From NCBI RefSeq assembly GCF_053078305.1, contig NZ_CP166879.1: a stretch of DNA of 64,000 bases; one strand, written 5' to 3'. The translations under genes and the position numbers were made by a program. Positions within the stretch are counted from its first letter, which is position 1; every line of letters starts with the position of its first letter. Below are positions 1 through 37,316 of the stretch, in pieces. The notes under the pieces were generated by a model that was not told the origin of the DNA, ran no database searches, and worked only from the letters and a program-made list of their open reading frames with translations.

Positions 1-382
1 TGTCATAAGTAAATATTGAAATGCTATCATCCCCGATCACTAACCGTTCTTGTAGATCAGGGTTTATGAAATCATCATTATTTCTATAAAATTCATTTAC
101 GGCAAAAAGGTTTTTAACTGAAGGTTCTGGAATCGAGAGGCTAAATAATCGTAATCCATTAACTTCGAATCCATCCATTGCTCTTAAAAAAGTAAGATAA
201 TCAGGTTGATTCTTAAAAAGAATACTAACTTCATTACATAACTTCTCCAGGCAATTAGTTGAATTAGAATTAAATTCTATTTGGATTATACTTTCAATAA
301 ATGATTCCTTGAGCGGTGCTTCAAATGGATAGTCTAAATCATTCATCATTTTTATTAATTTGTTTATTTGGGTTTTAGTCAT
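1..382 (-). CDS. Partial ORF (first ~127 codons; runs off the window start) immediately downstream of yhhZ; candidate immunity protein for the HNH toxin; positionally equivalent to yrhA
   Basis: Minus-strand ATG at 382-380 overlaps the yhhZ stop (TGATGA arrangement) and stays open to position 1 (begins MTKTQINKLIKMMNDLDYPFEAPLKESF...). AT-rich like yhhZ. Immunity role is inferred from position only. Confidence 0.5.
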   Translation of the reverse strand, partial: MTKTQINKLIKMMNDLDYPFEAPLKESFIESIIQIEFNSNSTNCLEKLCNEVSILFKNQPDYLTFLRAMDGFEVNGLRLFSLSIPEPSVKNLFAVNEFYRNNDDFINPDLQERLVIGDDSISIFTYD

Positions 383-1560
383 CATTTTGTGGGTTCCATA
401 ATATTTTTCATGGGAGGATAAATTGAGCCAGATGGAATGGCCCAGGGAGTGATTTTGCTTTCACCTACTAATATTCCCTTAGCTATTCGTGATTGCATGT
501 TAGTAAAAACTTTATGATATGGTTCGTTTTCGATTAATACTAAATTTTCGAAATCATTAGTACCACCATCATCTAGAGATAGTTTATGGTGAACATTATA
601 ATTTAGAGGAACATAGCCCTTTCTCATTCTTAAAAGGTCTTCGGTGTTGAATCTTCCAGATGCTTCGGAGGTTTTTGCAAGTTTGATAAGAAAATTTTTT
701 CTTACAGTTTTGTTAAACTCCTTTCGTAAGTTAGCTAAGTCTTTTGAAGGTCTCTTAATGTATATTATTTCTATTATGTCTATGCCATCAAGAAGTTTTT
801 GTTGACCTCTAAGTTTGCCTAAGTAACTATTTATTTCTGTATATGTATCAACTTTAGAACGCTTTGTTAAAAGAATAGATGCTGTTGCTATCGCTATGCC
901 CGCTGTTTTTTCATTTAGTATTTGATCATAGCCTTTGATTGCATCTCCACCCAGTTTTTCCGCAGTATCTCTGAAACCTTCAATGTTCCCATTGTATACG
1001 CCACCAGCAGCAAGTAGCCTGCCAACAGCTTTGCTGTTTAACGTTTTGAAACGATTATTTGTTTGGTTTTTTGAATTTGGTAAAAACAAACGGTTATAAT
1101 TTTCAGGGAGTGCCAAATAGCTGAACTCGGTATTTGCGATAAGATGTTGACAGAGGATAAATTCATAACTAACAGTTATTGTTTCTGTATCCAGTTGATT
1201 TTCAATGATCTGATGATGAATAGCCGATAAAAAAGCGCCTCTTAGTTGTATATAATAATACTTTTCCCATCTGCCAAATCTATTGATTCTATAAAAGTCA
1301 AATTCCATAAATAATTGCTCATTATTGTTAATGGAATTAATAAGTAATGGAGTGCTTTTATCAATTAATTTACAAAATGTTATACCCTGTAACTGTGAAC
1401 CAAGCCCCGTATTAGTAATGCTATTTGCGAGTGAGAATGTAAATATTTCATTCTCATGCCCGCTCTGCCAGCGATTACCTATAGATTCAGTAGTCCCACA
1501 ACCTGCGGAGATGCTTCCTTGTTGTTCTCCCGTTACTGTCAGGTAAACAATATTACTCAT
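382..1560 (-). CDS. yhhZ: Hcp-family (T6SS tube protein) N-terminal domain fused to a C-terminal HNH-type nuclease toxin domain (Hcp-ET type effector)
   Basis: 392-aa ORF. N-terminus has Hcp-like features including an FYRIN motif; C-terminus has NVHHKLSLDDGGTNDFENLVLIENEPYHK, an HNH/colicin-DNase-like His-metal finger. Length and position match my memory of K-12 yhhZ. AT-rich. Confidence 0.85.
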   Translation of the reverse strand: MSNIVYLTVTGEQQGSISAGCGTTESIGNRWQSGHENEIFTFSLANSITNTGLGSQLQGITFCKLIDKSTPLLINSINNNEQLFMEFDFYRINRFGRWEKYYYIQLRGAFLSAIHHQIIENQLDTETITVSYEFILCQHLIANTEFSYLALPENYNRLFLPNSKNQTNNRFKTLNSKAVGRLLAAGGVYNGNIEGFRDTAEKLGGDAIKGYDQILNEKTAGIAIATASILLTKRSKVDTYTEINSYLGKLRGQQKLLDGIDIIEIIYIKRPSKDLANLRKEFNKTVRKNFLIKLAKTSEASGRFNTEDLLRMRKGYVPLNYNVHHKLSLDDGGTNDFENLVLIENEPYHKVFTNMQSRIAKGILVGESKITPWAIPSGSIYPPMKNIMEPTK

Positions 1561-4698: not shown

Positions 4699-5694
4699 AT
4701 GAAAAAGAAAAGACCCGTACTTCAGGATGTGGCTGACCGTGTAGGCGTGACCAAAATGACGGTCAGCCGTTTTTTACGCAACCCGGAGCAGGTTTCCGTC
4801 GCTCTACGCGGCAAGATTGCCGCGGCTCTTGATGAACTGGGCTATATTCCCAATCGTGCGCCCGATATCCTCTCTAACGCCACCAGCCGGGCGATTGGCG
4901 TCCTGTTACCTTCTCTCACCAACCAGGTTTTCGCGGAAGTATTACGCGGAATCGAAAGCGTCACCGACGCGCACGGTTATCAGACCATGCTGGCCCACTA
5001 CGGTTATAAACCGGAAATGGAGCAAGAACGTCTCGAATCAATGCTCTCATGGAATATCGACGGACTTATCCTCACCGAACGTACCCACACGCCGCGCACC
5101 TTAAAGATGATTGAAGTGGCGGGGATTCCCGTGGTGGAACTGATGGACAGCAAGTCGCCATGCCTCGATATTGCCGTCGGTTTTGATAACTTTGAAGCGG
5201 CACGCCAGATGACCGCCGCCATTATTGCTCGCGGGCATCGCCATATTGCCTATCTCGGCGCACGTCTCGACGAACGTACTATCATCAAACAGAAGGGATA
5301 CGAACAGGCGATGCGGGATGCAGGCCTGGTGCCGTATAGCGTGATGGTTGAGCAATCTTCTTCTTACTCTTCCGGTATTGAACTGATTCGCCAGGCGCGG
5401 CGGGAATATCCGCAGCTGGATGGCGTGTTCTGTACTAATGATGATCTGGCGGTCGGCGCGGCGTTTGAATGTCAGCGTCTGGGGTTAAAAGTTCCTGACG
5501 ATATGGCGATTGCCGGTTTCCACGGTCATGACATTGGTCAGGTGATGGAGCCACGACTTGCGAGCGTGCTGACGCCGCGTGAGCGGATGGGCAGTATTGG
5601 CGCTGAACGCCTTCTGGCGCGTATTCGTGGCGAATCTGTGACACCGAAAATGTTAGATTTAGGTTTCACCTTGTCACCGGGCGGATCTATTTAA
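4699..5694 (+). CDS. gntR: LacI-family transcriptional repressor of gluconate genes
   Basis: 331-aa ORF; N-terminal HTH (VTKMTVSRFL) and periplasmic-binding-fold C-terminus; directly upstream of gntK-gntU. Confidence 0.93.
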   Translation: MKKKRPVLQDVADRVGVTKMTVSRFLRNPEQVSVALRGKIAAALDELGYIPNRAPDILSNATSRAIGVLLPSLTNQVFAEVLRGIESVTDAHGYQTMLAHYGYKPEMEQERLESMLSWNIDGLILTERTHTPRTLKMIEVAGIPVVELMDSKSPCLDIAVGFDNFEAARQMTAAIIARGHRHIAYLGARLDERTIIKQKGYEQAMRDAGLVPYSVMVEQSSSYSSGIELIRQARREYPQLDGVFCTNDDLAVGAAFECQRLGLKVPDDMAIAGFHGHDIGQVMEPRLASVLTPRERMGSIGAERLLARIRGESVTPKMLDLGFTLSPGGSI

Positions 5695-7843: not shown

Positions 7844-9940
7844 ATGGAAAAGCACGCAGCTGAATTGCTTTTACAGCGGATGTTAGGAAATACCACCGCT
7901 ACTTTCAGGGAAGGGCAATGGGAAGCCATAGACGCGGTGGTGAACCAACGGCGAAAACTGCTGGTTGTCCAACGCACTGGCTGGGGGAAAAGTGCTGTGT
8001 ACTTCATCGCCAGTAAAATCTTCCGCGATCGCGGCGCTGGCCCGACAATTATCATCTCTCCTTTGCTTGCCCAGATGCGTAACCAGGTTGCCGCCGCTGA
8101 ACGGTTAGGTATTACGGCTGAAACGTTGAATTCTACAAACAGGGAAGAATGGCAGCGCATTAGCGATAAGTTGCTGCAAGGTGCGGTCGATTGCTTGCTG
8201 GTTTCCCCGGAACGTTTGGCAAACCAGGACTTTATCGAAACGGTTTTATATCCTATAGCCGATCGTATTGGCTTGCTTGTGGTCGACGAGGCGCACTGCA
8301 TCTCTGATTGGGGCCACGATTTTCGCCCGGATTACCGACGTATATTAGATATTTTGCGCCAACTACCTGCGAATACCCCTGTTCTGGGTACAACCGCGAC
8401 AGCGAATAACCGTGTCGTTGAGGATATCCGTCAGCAATTGGGTGACATTGTGATTCAGCGTGGAACGCTGGCTCGCGAAAGTTTGGCGCTTGATGCCTTA
8501 GTCTTAGGTGAACAGTCATCCCGTCTGGCATGGTTAGCAACGGTTATCCCTCAGTTTTCCAAATCGGGAATTGTTTATACCCTGACTACTCGCGATGCCG
8601 AACTTGTCGCCGAGTGGTTAAGGAAAAATGGTATCAGTGCATTTGCTTACTACAGCGGCGTGACTTGTGAAGGCGCGGAAGATTCTAATACTGCCAGGGA
8701 ATATCTGGAGCAGGCGTTGCTGGCAAATAAAATTAAAGTGCTGGTTGCGACAACGGCGCTGGGAATGGGCTTTGACAAACCGGATTTGGGGTTTGTTATT
8801 CATTACCAGATGCCAGGTTCGATAGTTGGTTACTACCAACAGGTGGGGCGTGCCGGTCGCGGTATCGATTCTGCTGTTGGCATACTGCTTTGCGGCAGTG
8901 AAGACCGTGCTATTCATAAATTCTTCCGTGAAAGCGCCTTTCCTGCGGAGGCGCAAATTCATGAATTACTCAACGTACTTAGCGTGAATGACGGTCTTAC
9001 CTTACGAGGCATTGAACAACGGACGAATCTCCGTTATGGGCAAATAGAAAAAGCACTGAAATTATTGGTAGCTGAAAATCCATCGCCTGTGGTGTATACC
9101 GAGAAATTATGGCGCAGAACAATTGTCAGTTTTTCTCCTGACCATGAACGAATTAACCATTTGATGAATCAGAGAAAAAGTGAGCTGGCAGACGTTGAAA
9201 GCTATATCACGACCAAGGAGTGCAAAATGCAATTTCTGCGCCGCGCACTCGATGAGCCAGGTGCCGAACATTGTGGTAAATGTAGCAGTTGTCTTCAGCA
9301 TCCGTTGTTGTCGCCCGACATTGATAGCGGCTTACTCCATGCGGCAAACTTATTTATTAAACACGCTGACCTGTCATTAAATCTCAATAAACAGGTGGCA
9401 GCTGGGGCTTTTACGCAATACGGATTTAAAGGGAACTTGCCTGCGATTTTACAAGGATCTACGGGGCGAATCCTTTCTCGTTGGGGAGATTCCGGGTGGG
9501 GAAAGCAGGTAGCACAGGAGAAAAAAACGGGGCGATTCAGTGATGAACTGGTGGAGGCATGTGCGGAAATGGTTCGCCAACGCTGGAATCCGCATCCTGA
9601 ACCAACCTGGGTATGCTGCGTTCCTTCATTACAGCACCTCGACCTGGTTCCTGATTTTGCCCGGCGACTGGCGGCGAAACTTGGCTTACCTTTTATTGAT
9701 GCCATTGAAAAAGTCGTGGACAATCCACCGCAGAAAATGCAGCAAAACCGTTTCCACCAGTGTCAAAATCTCGACGGGGCGTTTGTGATTACCCCTCCTT
9801 TGATGCCTGGTCCGGCGTTGCTGGTTGACGATATCGTGGATTCTGCATGGACGCTGACAGTTCTGACAGCACTGTTACGCCAGGCAGGTTGCCCGACGGT
9901 TTATCCTCTTGCCCTTGCTTCTACCTCGGTAAAAAATTGA
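7844..9940 (+). CDS. RecQ-family superfamily-2 DNA helicase with Zn-binding module, fused to a C-terminal ComF/GntX-like phosphoribosyltransferase-fold domain (apparently degenerate)
   Basis: 698 aa. Walker A QRTGWGKS; RecQ-type motif II VVDEAHCISDWGHDFRPDY; later helicase motifs TATA and QQVGRAGRG; four-Cys cluster CKMQ...HCGKCSSC. The last ~150 aa parallel the GntX C-terminus (NLDGAFVI...ALLVDDIVDSAWTLTVLTALLRQAGCPTV vs GntX NLKNAFRL...MVIVDDVVTTGSTVAEIAQLLLRNGAATV). Good SD (gcaggag) 8 nt upstream. I do not recall this gene in K-12. Confidence 0.8.
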   Translation: MEKHAAELLLQRMLGNTTATFREGQWEAIDAVVNQRRKLLVVQRTGWGKSAVYFIASKIFRDRGAGPTIIISPLLAQMRNQVAAAERLGITAETLNSTNREEWQRISDKLLQGAVDCLLVSPERLANQDFIETVLYPIADRIGLLVVDEAHCISDWGHDFRPDYRRILDILRQLPANTPVLGTTATANNRVVEDIRQQLGDIVIQRGTLARESLALDALVLGEQSSRLAWLATVIPQFSKSGIVYTLTTRDAELVAEWLRKNGISAFAYYSGVTCEGAEDSNTAREYLEQALLANKIKVLVATTALGMGFDKPDLGFVIHYQMPGSIVGYYQQVGRAGRGIDSAVGILLCGSEDRAIHKFFRESAFPAEAQIHELLNVLSVNDGLTLRGIEQRTNLRYGQIEKALKLLVAENPSPVVYTEKLWRRTIVSFSPDHERINHLMNQRKSELADVESYITTKECKMQFLRRALDEPGAEHCGKCSSCLQHPLLSPDIDSGLLHAANLFIKHADLSLNLNKQVAAGAFTQYGFKGNLPAILQGSTGRILSRWGDSGWGKQVAQEKKTGRFSDELVEACAEMVRQRWNPHPEPTWVCCVPSLQHLDLVPDFARRLAAKLGLPFIDAIEKVVDNPPQKMQQNRFHQCQNLDGAFVITPPLMPGPALLVDDIVDSAWTLTVLTALLRQAGCPTVYPLALASTSVKN

Positions 9941-11142
9941 TGAATCTTTCAGCCAATGCACAAGCAACTCTCCTGCTAACCAGCGATTTTTCTCGCGCGG
10001 CGGCGAGTGAGTATAAACCTCTTAGTAATAGTGAATGGGGGAAGTTTGCATTATGGCTGAAGCACCAACGTATCAGTCCCGCCGAGCTTCTGGTGCCGCA
10101 ACCGCAAGAGAAACTTACAGGCTGGAGCGATCCGCGTATTTCTCAGGAGCGTATTCTTGGCTTGCTGGCGCGTGGTCATAGTCTGGCGTTGGCGGTAGAT
10201 AAGTGGCAACGCGCCGGTTTATGGATCTTAACCCGCGGAGATGCTGATTATCCCGTTCGCTTGAAAAACCGATTGCGAACGGATGCACCTCCCGTTTTAT
10301 TTGGCTGCGGGAATAAAGCATTACTGCAAGCGGAAGGTATGGCGATTGTTGGCTCGCGAGATGCTCCGACTGACGATTTGCGCTATACCCAACAACTGGC
10401 CGCGAAACTGGCCCAACAGGGGATTTGCGTTATCTCTGGTGGTGCGCGAGGTATTGATGAATGTGCAATGGCGTCGGTACTGGAGGCCGGGGGAACTGCC
10501 GTTGGCGTATTAGCTGATAGCTTGTTAAAAACGAGTACGTTAGTGAAATGGCGTGAAGGGCTTATAGCAGGCAACCTGGTGTTGATTTCGCCGTTTTACC
10601 CAGAGGTACGTTTCACCGTCGGCAATGCGATGGCGCGAAATAAATATATTTATTGCCTTGCTGAAAGCGCAATGGTTGTACGTGCGGGAATGACCGGTGG
10701 AACGATAACCGGGGCGATGGAGGCATTAAAACATCAGTGGCTGCCTGTGCAGGTTAAACCAAATCAGGATATGCAATCAGCCAATTCACGATTAGTAGAA
10801 AATGGGGCGTCATGGAGTGCTGAACAGGCTGAGAATGTGACGATCAGACTGCCAGACGTTCCTGGGCTGATGTATGACAGAGCACTCCGTAACGCTCAAC
10901 CAGAACTGTTTTCGCTGCATGAAGATGACGCAAATTACGCAGTAATGCCCGCGTATACGCCTGTCGATTTTTATCAACTCTTTGTGGCGGAACTGGCGAT
11001 CCTTGCAAAGGAATCGATAAGTATTGAAAGGCTGGCGTCTTGTACTGGTTTAACCATCGAACAAATTAGTGTGTGGCTGAACCGCGCAGAAGAAGAGGGA
11101 AGGGTTATCCGATTGGGCGAAGGTCATTATCAGTTCAGGTAA
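9940..11142 (+). CDS. DprA/Smf-like (SLOG-superfamily Rossmann) DNA-processing protein with N- and C-terminal extensions
   Basis: Start taken at the ATG overlapping the helicase stop by 1 nt (ttgATGaat), not the upstream in-frame ATG of the ORF track. DprA core motifs MAIVGSRDAPTD, ISGGARGIDECAMASVLEAGG, ISPFYPEVRF, ARNKYIYCLAESAMVV. About 90-aa C-terminal tail, possibly a winged helix. Confidence 0.8.
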   Translation: MNLSANAQATLLLTSDFSRAAASEYKPLSNSEWGKFALWLKHQRISPAELLVPQPQEKLTGWSDPRISQERILGLLARGHSLALAVDKWQRAGLWILTRGDADYPVRLKNRLRTDAPPVLFGCGNKALLQAEGMAIVGSRDAPTDDLRYTQQLAAKLAQQGICVISGGARGIDECAMASVLEAGGTAVGVLADSLLKTSTLVKWREGLIAGNLVLISPFYPEVRFTVGNAMARNKYIYCLAESAMVVRAGMTGGTITGAMEALKHQWLPVQVKPNQDMQSANSRLVENGASWSAEQAENVTIRLPDVPGLMYDRALRNAQPELFSLHEDDANYAVMPAYTPVDFYQLFVAELAILAKESISIERLASCTGLTIEQISVWLNRAEEEGRVIRLGEGHYQFR

Positions 11143-22833: not shown

Positions 22834-24351
22834 ATGGACAGAATGATGCCAAATAGAAAATGGATTTTGACCTCGCTGATAATGACTTTTTTCGGCATCC
22901 CCATACTGGCGCAATTTTTGGCAGCGGTTGTTGCCATGCTGGGTGTCGGGCTTACCGGTATTATTGAAGTTTGTAATATCCTTATCACGCCAACAATTTA
23001 TCTTCTACTCAACGTCTTTATGCTGACGCTGGGGGCGATAATAATATTTTTCTCTGGTCGCGTGTGGGCCGGTGATAGCGCGCCAGAAAACAGAGAAATA
23101 GCCGTCTGGCGGCAATGCTTTTTTCTCTTACCCGCGCTATTAACCCTGGTTGGCTGGATAATCACGCTACATCTGGCAGATTATCAATTTCGCCAGATGG
23201 GAGCTGGTTGGTTGGCAAACCTTATGCTTCCCTGGTTGGGCGTTTTTTTAGTCTCATTAGTGGGTGGTGAGTACTGGTGGATGGTCATTATTCCCGTTGG
23301 GGTGCATATCAGTTTTTCGCTGGGATACGCCTGGCCGACCAGATATCCTTTATCCGGCACGTCCGGACTACGTTGCCGTAACTTACTCCTGTTTCTACTT
23401 CTCTTACTTGGTATTGTCGCCGGGTATCAGGCCCATTTATATAAGCAGCAAAATCCTGGTGTCGGTGTACGCGAAAATATTGATATCTGGGCCTGGCGAC
23501 CCGATAAACTCAATAATCGACTGACGCCGCTGCGTGGCAAACCGCAAATTCAGTTTAGGCAAAACTGGCCGCGAATCGATGGCGCCACGGCTGCGTACCC
23601 AATTTATGCTTCTGCATTTTATGCATTAAGTGTAATACCAGAGGATTTTCACGTTTGGGATTATCTGGAAAACTCTCGTACGCCAGAAGCATATAACAAA
23701 ATCGTTAAGGGCGATGCTGATATTATTTTCGTGGCGCAACCTTCCGGTGGGCAAAAAAAACGTGCAAAGGAATCTGGTGTCACTTTGCTGTACACCCCCT
23801 TTGCCCGTGAAGCATTCGTTTTCATCGTCAATGCGGATAATCCGGTTAATTCCCTGACTGAACAACAGGTGCGTGACATTTTCAGTGGTGCAATTACCAA
23901 CTGGCGTACTTTTGGCGGTAACGATCAGGAGATCCAGACCTGGCAGCGCCCGGAAGACTCTGGCAGCCAGACAGTGATGCAATCACAGGTCATGAAAAAT
24001 GTCCGCATGATCTCGCCGCAGGAAACGGAAGTGGCAAGCGTGATGGAGGGAATGATTAAAGTCGTTGCCGAATACCGTAATACAAACAACGCAATAGGCT
24101 ATACCTTCCGCTATTACGCGACGCAAATGAATGCTGATAAAAATATAAAATTGCTAGCGATTAACGGTATTACACCGACGGCGGAAAACATTCGCAACGG
24201 CAAATATGCGTACATCGTCGATGCATTTATGGTGACGAGAGAAAATAAAACGTCAGAAACACAAAAACTGGTCGAATGGTTTTTAACGCCGCAGGGGCAG
24301 AGTCTGGTAGAAGATGTGGGATATGTGCCGCTGTATAAAATCTTACCTTAA
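22834..24351 (+). CDS. Membrane-anchored protein: N-terminal polytopic domain (~6 predicted TM helices) plus C-terminal periplasmic solute-binding-protein-like domain (PBP superfamily, possibly phosphate/oxyanion type)
   Basis: 505-aa ORF. First ~200 aa hydrophobic; C-terminal part has SBP-like segments (DGATAAYPIYASAFY, FVAQPSGGQ, LLAINGITPTAENIRNGKYAY). K-12 carries only a pseudogene (yzgL) at this position as far as I recall. SBP subfamily is a guess. Confidence 0.6.
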   Translation: MDRMMPNRKWILTSLIMTFFGIPILAQFLAAVVAMLGVGLTGIIEVCNILITPTIYLLLNVFMLTLGAIIIFFSGRVWAGDSAPENREIAVWRQCFFLLPALLTLVGWIITLHLADYQFRQMGAGWLANLMLPWLGVFLVSLVGGEYWWMVIIPVGVHISFSLGYAWPTRYPLSGTSGLRCRNLLLFLLLLLGIVAGYQAHLYKQQNPGVGVRENIDIWAWRPDKLNNRLTPLRGKPQIQFRQNWPRIDGATAAYPIYASAFYALSVIPEDFHVWDYLENSRTPEAYNKIVKGDADIIFVAQPSGGQKKRAKESGVTLLYTPFAREAFVFIVNADNPVNSLTEQQVRDIFSGAITNWRTFGGNDQEIQTWQRPEDSGSQTVMQSQVMKNVRMISPQETEVASVMEGMIKVVAEYRNTNNAIGYTFRYYATQMNADKNIKLLAINGITPTAENIRNGKYAYIVDAFMVTRENKTSETQKLVEWFLTPQGQSLVEDVGYVPLYKILP

Positions 24352-24453
24352 GCAGGATAATCATATGGATACCGGTATTATTCGCCTGAACGCGGCCAAT
24401 GCTCGTTTTGTTTATCAACCGTTTACACGCAATCAGCGGAAGAGGGAGTAATT

Positions 24454-25230
24454 ATGCAATGCAGCCCCGCCATGCAGGCATTAATTGAGCAGATTTATCA
24501 TATTTTTCGTCGTTATCCGGTGCCGTCGAGATTTCATGTTTGTTGTCCTTACTGCTTTAGCGAAGAACAACAACAAGCCTTAAGAGGGGTTTCACTGCGT
24601 GCCATACCTTTCCCTTTATTACATGCCTGGGGAACAAGTATTGGTCCTACCCCGCAAAATGATGATGAGATTCGCTATTTATTACCCAGATTGTTTGAAT
24701 TTATTTCCCAAAGGCAATTTCCAGGCATTTATGAAGGCTGCTGTTTACAGAGAATAGCAGAGGCAGATAACCAGAACTGGCGAACGGACGAACTACAAAT
24801 AATTAGCGATTTCGCCTATTTATATATGCAGGATTGGGTGTCGGCTAAGGAGGTCGTAGAACTGGAAATAATATTAGAAATGTTTTATCGCGGTGGTATA
24901 AAGATTGAACCCTTACTTGACGCCATTATGTCCATTTCCGGTTACTGGCCGACGGCGTCTATGGCATGTTTGCTCTGGCGTAACAGTAAAGAATACGTCG
25001 AAAATAGCGATTTTGAGCAGAGTGATGATAATAAAACTATTACCACTCAAATTAATACCTGGGCTAGAAATAATCATCCTTTTCTGAAAGAAAGAGCGCG
25101 ACAAGCGATTGAGAACCCACTAAAACAGCCTGAACCAATGACAGAATATCAAGTCTGGGAAGACGACTGGATGATTGATGAGTGTTTATGCGCGATGTAT
25201 GACGCATCACCCGAACAATCAGGACAATAA
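24454..25230 (+). CDS. Hypothetical soluble protein, Cys-containing N-terminus (CCPYC); no family recognised
   Basis: 258-aa ORF, AT-richer than flanking core genes; its stop is 2 nt before the next ORF's start. Confidence 0.5.
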   Translation: MQCSPAMQALIEQIYHIFRRYPVPSRFHVCCPYCFSEEQQQALRGVSLRAIPFPLLHAWGTSIGPTPQNDDEIRYLLPRLFEFISQRQFPGIYEGCCLQRIAEADNQNWRTDELQIISDFAYLYMQDWVSAKEVVELEIILEMFYRGGIKIEPLLDAIMSISGYWPTASMACLLWRNSKEYVENSDFEQSDDNKTITTQINTWARNNHPFLKERARQAIENPLKQPEPMTEYQVWEDDWMIDECLCAMYDASPEQSGQ

Positions 25231-25232
25231 AG

Positions 25233-25823
25233 ATGAATAAAATCAGACTTTATATTTATCCGCTATATCTCGGCTTTGTTATTGTGCCGTTGTTGGTGTG
25301 GCCGACGGTGGTTGTTGTTGGTATCACACTGAGTTTTCTAATGGAGATGCTGTTCTCAAATTCGTTCATGCACAGGCGTATTTCCCTTCTGGAATTACAA
25401 CTTGGGTTATTGGCTGAATATACGCTTTTGTTCTGCGCCATATGTTGCGTTGGTTGGCAATTTGCTCGCATAACTCAATCTGAATTGAAAAGCAAACTGC
25501 ATTATTGGCTGGTATTTGTACCAGTTTATTTCTGGTTGCTCCTGTGGAATATCATTTTCTATGTCGCGCCAGCGAAAATTGCATTGCTGGAAAATATGCG
25601 CAGTTTCTTTCTGACCGTTGTCTGGCTCCCACTGAATTTTTCGCCATTTTGGTCTCAACCGTGGATTGACTTTGTCGGTCCAATAAGCGCACAGCTTGGT
25701 TTTGCGTTGGGATATTATTGCCAGTGGCGTAGCAAAAATAGAAGCCAGAGGAAGAAGTGGGGCGAGTGGGTAATGTGCTTAAGTTTTGTTACGTTGGGTA
25801 TGATGGCGTGGGCTTTGCGGTAA
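25233..25823 (+). CDS. Hypothetical integral membrane protein (4-5 predicted TM helices)
   Basis: 196-aa hydrophobic ORF tightly coupled to the preceding ORF; AT-rich. Confidence 0.5.
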   Translation: MNKIRLYIYPLYLGFVIVPLLVWPTVVVVGITLSFLMEMLFSNSFMHRRISLLELQLGLLAEYTLLFCAICCVGWQFARITQSELKSKLHYWLVFVPVYFWLLLWNIIFYVAPAKIALLENMRSFFLTVVWLPLNFSPFWSQPWIDFVGPISAQLGFALGYYCQWRSKNRSQRKKWGEWVMCLSFVTLGMMAWALR

Positions 25824-28950: not shown

Positions 28951-29709
28951 ATGAAACAAACACAACGTCACAACGGTATTATCGAACTGGTTAAACAGCA
29001 GGGTTATGTCAGTACCGAGGAGCTGGTGGAGCACTTCTCCGTCAGCCCGCAGACTATTCGCCGCGACCTCAACGAACTGGCAGAGCAAAACCTGATCCTG
29101 CGCCATCATGGCGGTGCGGCGCTGCCTTCCAGTTCGGTTAACACGCCGTGGCACGATCGTAAAGCCACCCAGACCGAAGAAAAAGAGAGGATTGCCCGTA
29201 AAGTGGCGGAGCAAATCCCCAACGGCTCGACGCTGTTTATCGATATCGGCACCACGCCGGAAGCGGTGGCGCACGCGCTGCTCAATCACAGCAATTTGCG
29301 CATTGTCACCAACAATCTCAATGTTGCTAACACGTTGATGGTAAAAGAAGATTTCCGCATTATTCTCGCCGGTGGCGAATTACGCAGCCGCGATGGCGGG
29401 ATCATTGGCGAAGCGACGCTCGATTTTATCTCCCAGTTCCGCCTTGATTTCGGCATTCTGGGGATAAGCGGCATCGATAGCGACGGCTCGCTGCTGGAGT
29501 TCGATTACCACGAAGTTCGCACCAAACGCGCCATTATTGAGAACTCGCGCCACGTTATGCTGGTTGTCGATCACTCCAAATTTGGCCGTAACGCGATGGT
29601 CAATATGGGCAGCATCAGCATGGTAGATGCCGTCTACACCGACGCCCCGCCGCCAGTAAGCGTGATGCAGGTGCTGACGGACCACCATATTCAACTGGAG
29701 CTGTGCTGA
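28951..29709 (+). CDS. glpR: DeoR-family repressor of the glp regulon
   Basis: Start placed at MKQTQRHNGIIELVKQQGYVSTEEL (252 aa); DeoR HTH. Confidence 0.92.
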   Translation: MKQTQRHNGIIELVKQQGYVSTEELVEHFSVSPQTIRRDLNELAEQNLILRHHGGAALPSSSVNTPWHDRKATQTEEKERIARKVAEQIPNGSTLFIDIGTTPEAVAHALLNHSNLRIVTNNLNVANTLMVKEDFRIILAGGELRSRDGGIIGEATLDFISQFRLDFGILGISGIDSDGSLLEFDYHEVRTKRAIIENSRHVMLVVDHSKFGRNAMVNMGSISMVDAVYTDAPPPVSVMQVLTDHHIQLELC

Positions 29710-31289
29710 TCCTGCAATGCTTCCCACGTCAGACCAAAACGCGCCAGGTATTTGCGTAGCCGATCCGCGTCATTGACGCTGGCTTTGCCCTGGCGCGAAA
29801 CGTCAAAAAGCTGGCGTCCGGCTGCGGAAAGCGACTTTGCCTGGCGGCAGATTGCGATAACGTGTTCCAGTTGCATACGGTCGAAGAGATCGATGTTTTC
29901 TGCCTCTGCGCCCAGTAGCTGCGTAAGCGCGGAGGGGCGGCTCTCCTGCCAGTTATAGCGCAGACGGTTTATCTCATCTTCAACCACGTCCAGAGTGATG
30001 CGTCCGCTAGTGGCAAAGGTAGCCATCCGCGTGACGCTGGCAGAAAGCTCGCGAAAGTTACCGCGCCATGTTGCCTGGGGAGATGTCGCAAAGGCCAGCC
30101 AGGCGCGCCGCGCTTCGGTGTTAAAACGCACGCTGTCGCCGGTGAGTGAAGCGTGGCGCTCCACTTCATAATCCAGGTTAGGTTCAATATCTTCCTGACG
30201 CTGGCGTAGCCCCGGCAGGGTGAAGGTCCAGAGATTGATCCGCGCGTATAGATCTTCGCGGAATTTGCCATCGGCAACCAGCTGGCGCAAATCACGCACC
30301 GTTCCGGCGATAAGCTGAAAATCACTGCTCACCTGGCGATCGCTGCCAAACGGATAAAAGGTTTTTTCTTCAATGGCTTTCAGCAGCATTGCCTGTTCGT
30401 CTGCGCCCAGTTCGCCAATCTCATCAAGAAACAACATTCCGCCGTTGGCGCTGCGTAATAATCCTTCACGAGATTCCCGCGCCCCGGTAAACGCGCCTTT
30501 CACATGACCAAACAGCGTCGACATGGCGGTATCGCCGCGCAGGGTTGCGCAGTTCACTTCCACAAACGCGCCGCTAAACTGATGCCGCGCCTGTTTTAAT
30601 TCAAATATACGTCGCGCCAGAAATGACTTGCCCGCACCGGTTGGGCCGTTTAGCAGGATCGGTGCGCGGGATTTAATCGCCACTTTTTCAATCTGCTCAA
30701 TCATGCGGTTGAAGTGGGGGTTACGCGTGGCAATACCGGACTTAAGAAAATCAAGCGTTTGCTGGCGTTCCTCGGCAAAGCGGCTGGCGATGGCGTTATA
30801 ACGGCTTAAATCGAGATCGATAATCGTCACTTCACCTGCGCCGCGCGGCTGTTCTTTTTTGCGCGGAGGTGAAGATTGTATCAACCGGGCGGGCAGGTAA
30901 CGCGCTTCAGCCAGCAGAAACCAGCAAATCTGCGCGACGTGGGTGCCGGTGGTGATGTGAATTAAATAGTCTTCTTTTTCTGGCTGAAACTCGTAACCAC
31001 GGGCGAAATCATGCAGGCAGGCGTAAACCTCTTCGAAATCCCACGGGTTATGCAGCTCAATCTCAACGCTCACCACTTCTGTTTCTGGCGAAACGCTGAC
31101 GATATCGCGTTTAAGCGTTTCAAACAGCGAGCGCGAGCGGGCGTCGTGCAATAATTCCAGTCGATCGATGACTAACGATTCTTGCTGGCATATACAGAGT
31201 GACGGACGCCATTTCGACCAGCGCTGACTGCCGCGTCCGGCATAATCCAGTACGGTGCCGACAAAGCCAAAAGCCACTGTTTTACGCAT
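29691..31289 (-). CDS. rtcR: Sigma-54-dependent transcriptional activator of rtcBA
   Basis: Start placed at [16 protein letters not shown] (532 aa); AAA+ core with GAFTGA motif; divergent from rtcB. Confidence 0.92.
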
Positions 31290-31475: not shown

Positions 31476-32702
31476 ATGAATTACGAATTACTGACCACTG
31501 AAAATGCCTCGGTAAAAATGTGGACCAAAGGCGTGCCGGTAGAAGCCGATGCGCGTCAGCAACTTATTAATACGGCGAAGATGCCGTTTATTTTCAAACA
31601 TATTGCGGTAATGCCTGATGTACACCTGGGTAAAGGTTCCACCATTGGTAGCGTGATCCCGACCAAAGGGGCGATTATTCCGGCGGCGGTGGGCGTGGAT
31701 ATTGGCTGTGGAATGAACGCACTACGTACCGCTTTAACGGCGGCTGACCTGCCGGAAAACCTGGCGGAGCTGCGTCAGGCGATTGAAACTGCGGTGCCGC
31801 ACGGGCGTACCACTGGCCGTTGTAAACGTGATAAAGGCGCATGGGAAAACCCGCCTGTTAACGTCGATGCGAAATGGGCTGAGCTGGAGGCCGGTTATCA
31901 GTGGTTAACGCAAAAATATCCGCGTTTCCTTAACACTAACAACTATAAACACCTGGGAACGCTGGGAACGGGTAACCACTTTATTGAAATCTGCCTTGAT
32001 GAGTCGGACCAGGTGTGGATTATGCTGCACTCCGGTTCACGCGGAATTGGTAATGCCATCGGGACTTACTTTATCGATCTGGCGCAAAAAGAGATGCAGG
32101 ACCAACTTGAGACGTTGCCGTCGCGTGATCTGGCGTACTTTATGGAAGGTACGGAATACTTTGATGATTACCTGAAAGCCGTGGCCTGGGCGCAGCTTTT
32201 TGCCAGCCTTAACCGCGATGCGATGATGGAAAACGTGGTAACAGCGTTGCAGAGCATTACGCAGAAAACGGTCAGACAGCCACAAACGCTGGCGATGGAA
32301 GAGATCAACTGTCACCACAACTATGTGCAAAAAGAACAGCACTTTGGTGAAGAGATCTATGTGACGCGTAAAGGCGCGGTGTCTGCGCGTGCTGGTCAAT
32401 ATGGAATTATTCCCGGTTCGATGGGTGCGAAAAGCTTTATCGTCCGTGGGCTGGGAAATGAAGAGTCGTTCTGTTCGTGCAGCCACGGTGCCGGGCGGGT
32501 AATGAGCCGTACTAAAGCGAAAAAACTGTTCAGCGTGGAAGATCAAATTCGTGCTACCGCGCATGTGGAATGCCGTAAAGATGCCGAAGTGATCGACGAA
32601 ATCCCGATGGCGTATAAAGATATTGATGCGGTGATGGCGGCACAAAGCGATCTGGTGGAAGTTATCTATACCCTGCGTCAGGTGGTGTGCGTAAAAGGAT
32701 AA
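31476..32702 (+). CDS. rtcB: RNA-splicing ligase RtcB (3'-phosphate/5'-OH RNA ligase)
   Basis: 408-aa ORF of the expected length and position in the rtcR/rtcBA locus. Confidence 0.95.
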   Translation: MNYELLTTENASVKMWTKGVPVEADARQQLINTAKMPFIFKHIAVMPDVHLGKGSTIGSVIPTKGAIIPAAVGVDIGCGMNALRTALTAADLPENLAELRQAIETAVPHGRTTGRCKRDKGAWENPPVNVDAKWAELEAGYQWLTQKYPRFLNTNNYKHLGTLGTGNHFIEICLDESDQVWIMLHSGSRGIGNAIGTYFIDLAQKEMQDQLETLPSRDLAYFMEGTEYFDDYLKAVAWAQLFASLNRDAMMENVVTALQSITQKTVRQPQTLAMEEINCHHNYVQKEQHFGEEIYVTRKGAVSARAGQYGIIPGSMGAKSFIVRGLGNEESFCSCSHGAGRVMSRTKAKKLFSVEDQIRATAHVECRKDAEVIDEIPMAYKDIDAVMAAQSDLVEVIYTLRQVVCVKG

Positions 32703-33734
<1,032 letters not shown>

Positions 33735-33783
33735 AATCCCTCCCGGATCAGACTCATCAGTGTGACTATCCGGTAGAGGTAAA

Positions 33784-34269
33784 TTACTCCAGAGTAATGA
33801 GATACAGTAAGGTAAGTGACTGGAATGGTGAAGGTACAAAGGCATACTTCAGATAGAAATTGCGTACTGAATCGTCTAAGGCATGAACAATAAGCGCACG
33901 AACCCCTACCTGTTGAGCTATGGACATTGTGCGATAGACTGCATCTTTCAACAATGCGACGCCCAACCCTTTACCTGCCCAGGCTTGATCAATTGCCAGT
34001 CTGCCTAATACGACAACAGGCAACGATTCGGGAGCATTACGTCGCATGGCTCCAGGGGCCAAATTACGTTGAATACTGCCTGTAGAAAGGCAGTAATAGC
34101 CGATTACCTGGCGGGTATTGGCAATACAGATAACGTAAACACGAGACAGACCGGAGCTGTGATTTTTTAATGCTTTCTTTTTTAGCCATTCATTCATCCC
34201 GTGATCGGAACAGCAAAAGTCAGCCAGATTATGTTCAGACGTTAGGGGAGTAGGAGCCGTTATTCCCAT
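33784..34269 (-). CDS. GNAT-family acetyltransferase toxin (TacT/AtaT/ItaT/KacT-like; predicted aminoacyl-tRNA acetylating toxin)
   Basis: 161 aa; acetyl-CoA binding motif QAWAGKGLGVALL; start codon lies inside the last codons of the upstream DUF1778 ORF. I do not recall this pair in K-12. Confidence 0.75.
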   Translation of the reverse strand: MGITAPTPLTSEHNLADFCCSDHGMNEWLKKKALKNHSSGLSRVYVICIANTRQVIGYYCLSTGSIQRNLAPGAMRRNAPESLPVVVLGRLAIDQAWAGKGLGVALLKDAVYRTMSIAQQVGVRALIVHALDDSVRNFYLKYAFVPSPFQSLTLLYLITLE

Positions 34270-34544
34270 GGCGATTTACGATTCATCAACGCGTTAATTT
34301 TGGCCTGACGCTCAGCAGTGATGGGGGCGTCCAGGGCAGCCAGAAACGCATCGTATTGCTCGTCATCAAGGATGAATAGTCGTTGATCTAATAAGATGTC
34401 TTGCGCTTCACGGCATGCGGCATCCAGCATAAAATCAGTGCGCGATTTTGCGACCAGATTCGCTGCCATATCAATCAGGTCACGCTGTGAGGCTTTCGCT
34501 CTGATATTGATTGGCGCTTCTTTGCTTTCCGGTTTCATATTCAT
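34260..34544 (-). CDS. DUF1778-type (ribbon-helix-helix) antitoxin partnered with the GNAT toxin
   Basis: 94 aa; INIRAKASQRDLIDMAANLVAKSRTDFMLDAA is the typical DUF1778 N-terminus; upstream of and overlapping the toxin ORF by 10 nt. Confidence 0.75.
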   Translation of the reverse strand: MNMKPESKEAPINIRAKASQRDLIDMAANLVAKSRTDFMLDAACREAQDILLDQRLFILDDEQYDAFLAALDAPITAERQAKINALMNRKSPWE

Positions 34545-34604
34545 GAGCCTGTAGTGCGATTTTATATACAGTATAAAGAGTGTACATAAAAACGCTATAC
34601 AAAC

Positions 34605-37316
<2,712 letters not shown>

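Follow-up and report, generated by a model that had tools for sequence, protein, structure and literature searches.

Does a toxin–antitoxin (TA) module that stands beside an RNA-repair operon take part in RNA repair, or is it there by accident? The question is raised by a locus in a 64,000-nt stretch of contig NZ_CP166879.1 (RefSeq assembly GCF_053078305.1), hereafter the window, in which a small gene pair encoding a DUF1778 antitoxin and a GNAT toxin lies between rtcA and malT, convergent with the rtcBA operon. We conclude with very high confidence that this pair is the chromosomal type II TA operon ataR2-ataT2 (AtaRT2), known from Escherichia coli O157:H7, and that its adjacency to rtcBA is incidental.

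Identity of the toxin–antitoxin pair

The module consists of two overlapping frames, for one of which an alternative start was considered:

33784..34269 including the stop codon, minus strand: ataT2, GNAT toxin (aminoacyl-tRNA N-acetyltransferase), 161 amino acids (aa), from the open reading frame (ORF) list, PDB match and Pfam
34260..34538, minus strand: ataR2, DUF1778/TacA ribbon-helix-helix antitoxin, 92 aa, from the ORF list, PDB match and Pfam
34260..34544, minus strand: alternative ataR2 frame, 94 aa from the first ATG, which is in frame at 34544

A sequence search of PDB led for both proteins to entry 7F37, probably deposited with a structural study of TacT and Gly-tRNA, in which there are two copies of the toxin and four of the antitoxin. 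The toxin is identical to chain B at 160 of 161 residues (E 2e-105), the sole difference being L157 here and P157 there, and the antitoxin is identical to chain C at 92 of 92 residues (E 2e-55). At the DNA level the module is 99.5% identical to O157:H7 Sakai over 761 bp, with four substitutions and otherwise base-for-base agreement, and the Sakai counterparts, ECs_4261 and ECs_4262, are flanked by malT (ECs_4260) and rtcA (ECs_4263). Ovchinnikov et al. assign the name ataRT2 to locus tags ECs4261-ECs4262 (PMC7470980). Because the same genes occupy the same site in Sakai and their locus tags carry this name, the feature is AtaR2-AtaT2 itself and no new member of the family. AtaRT2 is thus an already characterized system, found here at its usual chromosomal site. 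The window and Sakai copies share their genes, the malT-rtcA site, the overlap, the promoter block and the catalytic Y139; they differ by P157L in the toxin and in their hosts, since the host here is not O157 and its flanking rtc genes diverge from those of Sakai by about 2%.

The organization and the protein families are those of a type II TA pair. Both genes are small and lie on one strand, with the antitoxin ORF upstream and the toxin ORF downstream, and they overlap by 10 nt, so that the toxin ATG (34269..34267) falls within the final codons of the antitoxin, whose TAA occupies 34262..34260. Pfam places the antitoxin among the DUF1778/TacA ribbon-helix-helix proteins (TacA1/DUF1778, PF08681, E 1.2e-19), and the toxin matched the GNAT families Acetyltransf_7/_1 (PF13508, PF00583) weakly, at E ~1e-4. 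As expected of a GNAT-fold toxin, it has a catalytic Y139 and an acetyl-CoA-binding loop, GKGLG, both conserved; Y139 is kept in 113 of 115 toxin homologs and, together with R90, L91, G103, H129 and F144, belongs to the near-invariant residues (at least 112 of 115).

For ataR2, a start at the second ATG (34538), giving 92 aa, is more likely than the 94-aa frame, because six of six orthologs are 92 aa long and begin with MK(P/S/T)E, and both the RefSeq gene (279 nt) and the crystallized protein agree with this length. The first-pass annotation had described an overlapping DUF1778/GNAT type II pair between rtcA and malT, convergent with rtcBA. Its position agrees with the flanking ORFs, and its coordinates, overlap and families were borne out by the ORFs, Pfam and PDB, but its 94-aa antitoxin gives way to the likelier 92-aa form. 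It had also listed characterized relatives of the correct family while overlooking that the pair is itself one of them.

Published function and proposed mechanism

The activity of the Sakai allele is described by Ovchinnikov et al. (PMC7470980). There, induction of AtaT2 for 30 min sharply reduced the viability of E. coli BW25113, and killing was absent with the AtaT2 Y139A mutant or upon co-expression of AtaR2. The purified AtaR2-AtaT2 complex had a mass of 99 kDa, which fits a toxin dimer with an antitoxin tetramer (T2A4). The authors also report that AtaT2 acetylates Gly-tRNAGly, adding 42 Da to the glycyl moiety and leaving Ile-tRNAIle unmodified, that peptidyl-tRNA hydrolase (Pth) takes off the acetyl-glycine and so reverses the modification, and that AtaT2 in vivo causes ribosomes to stall at each of the four Gly codons but evokes no stringent response. 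A liquid chromatography/mass spectrometry survey found acetylation by AtaT2 in vivo to be exclusive to Gly-tRNAGly, reaching 70–80% at 45 min (PMC9177977). Acetylation of Gly-tRNAGly by AtaT2 is documented both in vitro and in vivo (PMC7470980, PMC9177977). Because toxicity, neutralization, the Gly-tRNAGly target and the crystal structure are established for AtaT2, most of the checks proposed in the first-pass annotation are already in print.

Applied to the window, these data suggest the following course of events. A single promoter just downstream of malT would drive transcription of both ataR2 and ataT2, and the 10-nt overlap would couple their translation. AtaR2 would bind DNA through its N-terminal ribbon-helix-helix part and toxin through its C-terminal part, holding AtaT2 sequestered in a T2:A4 heterohexamer, and, by analogy with the family, the complex may repress its own promoter via a palindromic operator. 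Once AtaT2 is free, blocked Gly-tRNA would be unusable in elongation, so that ribosomes would stall at the four Gly codons and growth would arrest; stripping of acetyl-glycine by Pth would undo the damage. Growth arrest by the toxin and its neutralization by the antitoxin are established for the Sakai allele, and the window allele, one residue away, would be expected to behave alike.

AtaRT2 has well-studied relatives. TacA-TacT, TacAT2 and TacAT3 of Salmonella Typhimurium (PDB 5FVJ, 7F36, 7AK7, 7AK8) share its family and architecture, with full-length toxin matches at E ~1e-42 to 1e-44 and antitoxin matches to the 7ZG6 and 7AK7 chains, but they are paralogous lineages, about half identical in the printed alignment, in another host and at other loci. 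TacT3 and AtaT2 are both specific for Gly-tRNAGly and form sister subclades of clade D (PMC9177977). AtaR-AtaT of O157:H7 (ECs4308-4307), ItaRT of E. coli HS and KacAT of Klebsiella likewise pair a GNAT toxin with a DUF1778 antitoxin, form T2A4 complexes and acetylate aminoacyl-tRNAs, but their toxins, of which AtaT and KacT match over their full length, are distant (E 1e-17 to 1e-20; AtaT ~1e-20, KacT ~1e-17) and their targets differ or are broader, namely Met-tRNAfMet or several tRNAs for AtaT and Ile-tRNAIle for ItaT. Among the TacA/AtaR chains, AtaR2 is also related to 6AJM in the PDB search, and AtaT and AtaT2 are given as 29.2% identical in PMC7470980.

Insertion site and spread within E. 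coli

We surveyed 5426 complete E. coli genomes for the module. It is present in 394 (7%), always as a single chromosomal copy, and in all 394 carriers it occupies the malT-rtcA site with both flanks contiguous, whereas 5026 genomes (92.6%) have an uninterrupted junction of the K-12 type. Among the carriers are O157:H7, O145:H28 and scattered animal, human and water isolates, at 97.8–100% identity. This is the presence/absence survey that the first-pass annotation had suggested, and it agrees with the statement there that K-12 lacks the pair at this position: in MG1655, malT and rtcA are 42 nt apart and no module intervenes.

Two features describe the occupied site:

33712..34600: segment without K-12 counterpart, 889 bp versus about 49 bp in K-12, from BLAST and alignments
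33739..33779: hairpin in the spacer between the rtcA and ataT2 stops, fold −17.2 kcal/mol (plus strand) and −17.1 kcal/mol (minus strand)

In the BLAST comparison, homology between K-12 and the window stops at 33711 and restarts at 34601, and the segment between these points spans the module, its promoter, the spacer and the last 8 rtcA codons. Because homology stops at 33711, the difference between occupied and empty sites takes in the end of rtcA itself: RtcA ends in ...RVMITKLTD (342 aa) in the window and in ...RVSIE (338 aa) in K-12. The spacer hairpin, CCGGAT...ATCCGG, is present in both alleles, its stems aligning with a homologous copy in the empty K-12 site, and it is marginally stabler than shuffled sequence (z −1.9 on the plus strand, −0.8 on the minus strand). 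No simple insertion or deletion accounts for the way in which the two alleles differ in their rtcA tails and hairpin loops. The window and Sakai are near-identical in the module and over about 400 bp on either side of it, and about 2% divergent in rtcB and the 5' portion of rtcA. Judging from these alignments, the occupied allele may have spread between lineages by homologous recombination.

Further observations concern the flanks. The ...RVMITKLTD tail is shared by the 3 occupied alleles examined (the window, 33700..33734; Sakai; strain D8), and strains with an empty site, K-12 among them, have ...RVSIE. Overall, the malT-rtcA junction varies widely, with 2355 records just 80–90% identical to K-12 over 271 bp. 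We also asked whether the module had brought a divergent malT 3' end along with it, the window differing from K-12 at 26 of 200 positions in 34600-34800, and rejected the idea; because empty-site strains, for example 95JB1, match the window over the last ~120 nt, it is the K-12 malT 3' end that is the odd allele.

Orthologs outside E. coli

To compare contexts, ten loci were fetched for the six closest ortholog clusters in other genera, with 64–78% toxin identity:

Pectobacterium: a DeoR regulator with small ORFs on one side, a sugar ABC transporter on the other
Serratia: flanked by sulfur-transport genes and a ter cluster
Raoultella/Klebsiella: in variable accessory DNA
Yersinia, Salmonella and Enterobacter: on F-like conjugative plasmids, beside traD and followed by traT

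The F-like plasmid orthologs are the closest relatives outside E. coli, with toxins 70–78% and antitoxins 79–86% identical. They share the 10-nt overlap and a homologous promoter/operator block and encode proteins of 92 aa and 160 aa (versus a toxin of 161 aa here). They differ in lying within a plasmid transfer region, as known from sequence, whereas the E. coli copy is chromosomal and has one fixed site. In 3 of the 4 plasmid loci traT follows; one of the two Enterobacter plasmids (L017) has IS66-family transposase genes in its place. At all four (L012, L015, L016, L017; about 4732..5483) the orthologs stand on the strand opposite the tra genes. More widely, relatives at E<=1e-30 occur in 2639 plasmid records, 1768 of them conjugative, and distant relatives are present in a few phages or prophages. 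The module is an accessory cassette of about 0.8 kb, and other members of its family are frequent on conjugative plasmids.

AtaRT2 might serve mainly in abortive infection against phages and less in stress or persistence, as could be expected of an accessory element that is patchy (7% of E. coli), has plentiful relatives on mobile elements and distant ones in a few phages or prophages, and shares the window with a separate TA system of defense type, PsyrTA; antiphage immunity has been implicated for other translation-targeting TA toxins (PMC11559606). Against this, PADLOC models match neither protein, the literature searched shows no phage-defense phenotype for AtaRT2, and the traD-traT plasmid setting of its close relatives fits plasmid maintenance equally well or better. 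We therefore regard a mainly antiphage role as unlikely.

The PsyrTA-type pair is located between gntU and yhgN (7844..11142, plus strand), where a gene for a 698-aa RecQ-family helicase (7844..9940) overlaps one for a 431-aa DprA-like protein (9847..11142). The helicase matches the PADLOC model PsyrT (E=0, 1057 bits) and the DprA-like protein the model PsyrA (7e-202). The Sakai counterpart of the helicase gene, ECs_4281, is annotated as a pseudogene.

Relation to the Rtc RNA-repair system

The genes flanking AtaRT2 in the window are as follows:

29691..31289, minus strand: rtcR, intact, 532 aa
31424: sigma-54 promoter TGGCACGACGGTTGCA of rtcBA
31476..32702, plus strand: rtcB
32706..33734, plus strand: rtcA, at the end of the sigma-54 rtcBA operon
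34605..37310, minus strand: malT

AtaRT2 lies between rtcA and malT and converges with rtcBA, the rtcA and toxin stops being 49 nt apart. The window rtcR differs from that of Sakai by 5 aa. In the closest complete genome, Res13-Sevr-PER07-33, the module is 100% identical and rtcR has a 1-base deletion near codon 23, for which it is annotated as frameshifted (L001 1909..3506). Some E. coli lineages, including ST131 and also strain E14, retain of the rtc genes only a partial rtcA fused beside a partial rtcR; because rtc is reduced to fragments in such lineages, the Rtc system appears dispensable and variably present.

RtcB is a ligase for broken RNA ends, and RtcR becomes active upon sensing 5' tRNA halves with a 2',3'-cyclic phosphate end; in E. 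coli the tRNA-cleaving toxins colicin D and VapC switch on rtcBA (PMC7790460). AtaRT2 might accordingly be coupled to Rtc in one of three ways: AtaT2 could induce rtcBA, RtcBA could counter the damage done by AtaT2, or convergent rtcBA transcription could modulate the TA operon. The arrangement allows for it, in that the two units converge 49 nt apart, that rtcR, rtcB, rtcA and the sigma-54 promoter are all intact in the window, and that 394 of 394 carriers have the module at this single site; the response of rtcBA to colicin D and VapC adds a precedent, and the literature search found no study of AtaT2 or other GNAT toxins together with Rtc.

However, the association dissolves outside this site. 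No tblastn match to RtcB, RtcA, RtcR or MalT was found within 5 kb in any of the ten ortholog loci of the six nearest foreign clusters, three of which are plasmid-borne, and within E. coli the 92.6% of genomes with an empty junction have rtcA and malT without the module. One fixed site within a species is the outcome expected of a single insertion followed by descent and recombination. The chemistry is likewise unsuited: AtaT2 acetylates only the aminoacyl group and leaves the tRNA backbone intact, so that no ends would arise for Rtc, and the known antidote is Pth. In addition, the nearest complete genome carries the module beside its frameshifted rtcR, and ST131-type strains have lost most of rtc. 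A functional tie of AtaRT2 to Rtc is thus supported neither by comparative context nor by toxin chemistry, and we consider such coupling extremely improbable. The first-pass annotation had allowed that the adjacency may be coincidental, and the evidence leans that way.

An indirect connection can also be conceived. No intrinsic terminator was called in the 49-nt spacer between rtcA and ataT2, and because its hairpin has no U-tract, read-through in either direction is conceivable. Strong rtcBA transcription, induced through sigma-54 and RtcR, might then read antisense through ataT2-ataR2 and shift the toxin:antitoxin balance, or stalling caused by AtaT2 might indirectly yield cleaved RNAs that induce Rtc. 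The Rtc studies that we found were all carried out in K-12-type or Salmonella strains, and K-12 lacks the module. If true, the sensing of RNA damage would be tied to translation arrest in a strain-specific manner in carriers like O157:H7, but we hold this to be very improbable. The rtcBA neighborhood is best explained as the chance landing place of a small plasmid-related cassette in one E. coli lineage.

Candidate promoter and operator

Upstream of ataR2 the following elements were recognized:

34559..34586, minus strand: candidate sigma-70 promoter of ataR2-ataT2, TGTACA-16 nt-TAAAAT, 9 of 12 matches in a consensus scan
34551..34600, minus strand: conserved promoter/operator block, from by-eye alignment with ortholog upstream regions
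34600..34594, minus strand: half-site-like repeat GTATAGC, in the block
34575..34565, minus strand: palindrome TATACtGTATA, half-site-like, in the promoter spacer
34557..34551, minus strand: half-site-like repeat GCACTAC, in the block

The TGTACA of the candidate promoter is itself one of the half-site-like repeats. The promoter lies 20 nt upstream of the ataR2 start at 34538, a position that suits an operon promoter, and sites with such a consensus score numbered 3 in the region versus 1.4 expected. The block was compared with the upstream regions of the Pectobacterium, Serratia, Raoultella and Enterobacter modules and of those on the Salmonella and Yersinia plasmids, which by eye have in common the pattern GTGTAGC...TACAC...GTATA.TTGTATA...CTACAC. 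It has the shape expected of an operator for a ribbon-helix-helix antitoxin, and, by analogy with the antitoxin family, would be predicted to serve as one. Only 7 nt (34601..34607) lie between the end of malT and this block; because it starts so soon after the malT stop, the cassette is minimal, consisting of a promoter, two genes and little else. What we infer for ataRT2 comprises its promoter, its operator, autoregulation and any physiological trigger.

The P157L variant and other points against the assignment

Several points weigh against the reading of the locus as a working AtaRT2 operon. The candidate promoter matches the consensus at only 9 of 12 positions, and the operator is predicted. 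No NCBIfam or PADLOC model matches AtaR2 or AtaT2, a result that we judge uninformative rather than contrary. For the physiological role of AtaRT2, candidates include stress response, phage defense and selfish maintenance. Finally, L157 is rare, the 61 nt around codon 157 being matched exactly in just 2 of the 394 carriers.

Considering this last point, the toxin could have been attenuated or inactivated through P157L, leaving a decaying or domesticated remnant. Its rarity is in keeping with such decay, as is the proline found at this position in Sakai and in six of six close orthologs. Both frames are intact, however, with the antitoxin unchanged and the catalytic and acetyl-CoA-binding residues conserved, and the wider family has serine, arginine and other residues at 157 (P 53, S 19 and R 11 of 115). 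The notion that P157L hits a strictly conserved residue was rejected, as only those 53 of 115 family members have proline. Because position 157 is only moderately conserved, the substitution should be tolerated and loss of function would not be expected. A toxin impaired by P157L is therefore quite improbable.

Other accessory genes in the window

A 392-aa ORF at 382..1560 (minus strand) matches the type VI secretion system tube protein Hcp/TssD over residues 1-147 (TIGR03344, 6.6e-36), and its remaining ~245 residues have no family match, so that the protein may be an "evolved Hcp" ending in an effector domain. In the closest complete genome this region is different and contains a frameshifted DUF4225 gene. 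Between glgP and glpD lies an accessory trio (22834..25823, plus strand) comprising a gene for a 505-aa protein whose C-terminal half resembles PstS, followed by ORFs of 258 aa and 196 aa, neither of the latter two matching any NCBIfam or PADLOC model. Around the middle gene (24336..25187) there is no alignment to Sakai, where a 993-nt ABC ATPase gene stands.

Implications

RefSeq labels the two genes only as "GNAT family N-acetyltransferase" and "DUF1778 domain-containing protein", and they can now be renamed ataT2 and ataR2. With these names come an established target, Gly-tRNAGly, and an available crystal structure; beyond correct annotation, the importance of the finding is slight. For E. 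coli, ataRT2 emerges as a presence/absence polymorphism at a single site, and its nearest relatives reside in the transfer regions of F-like plasmids.

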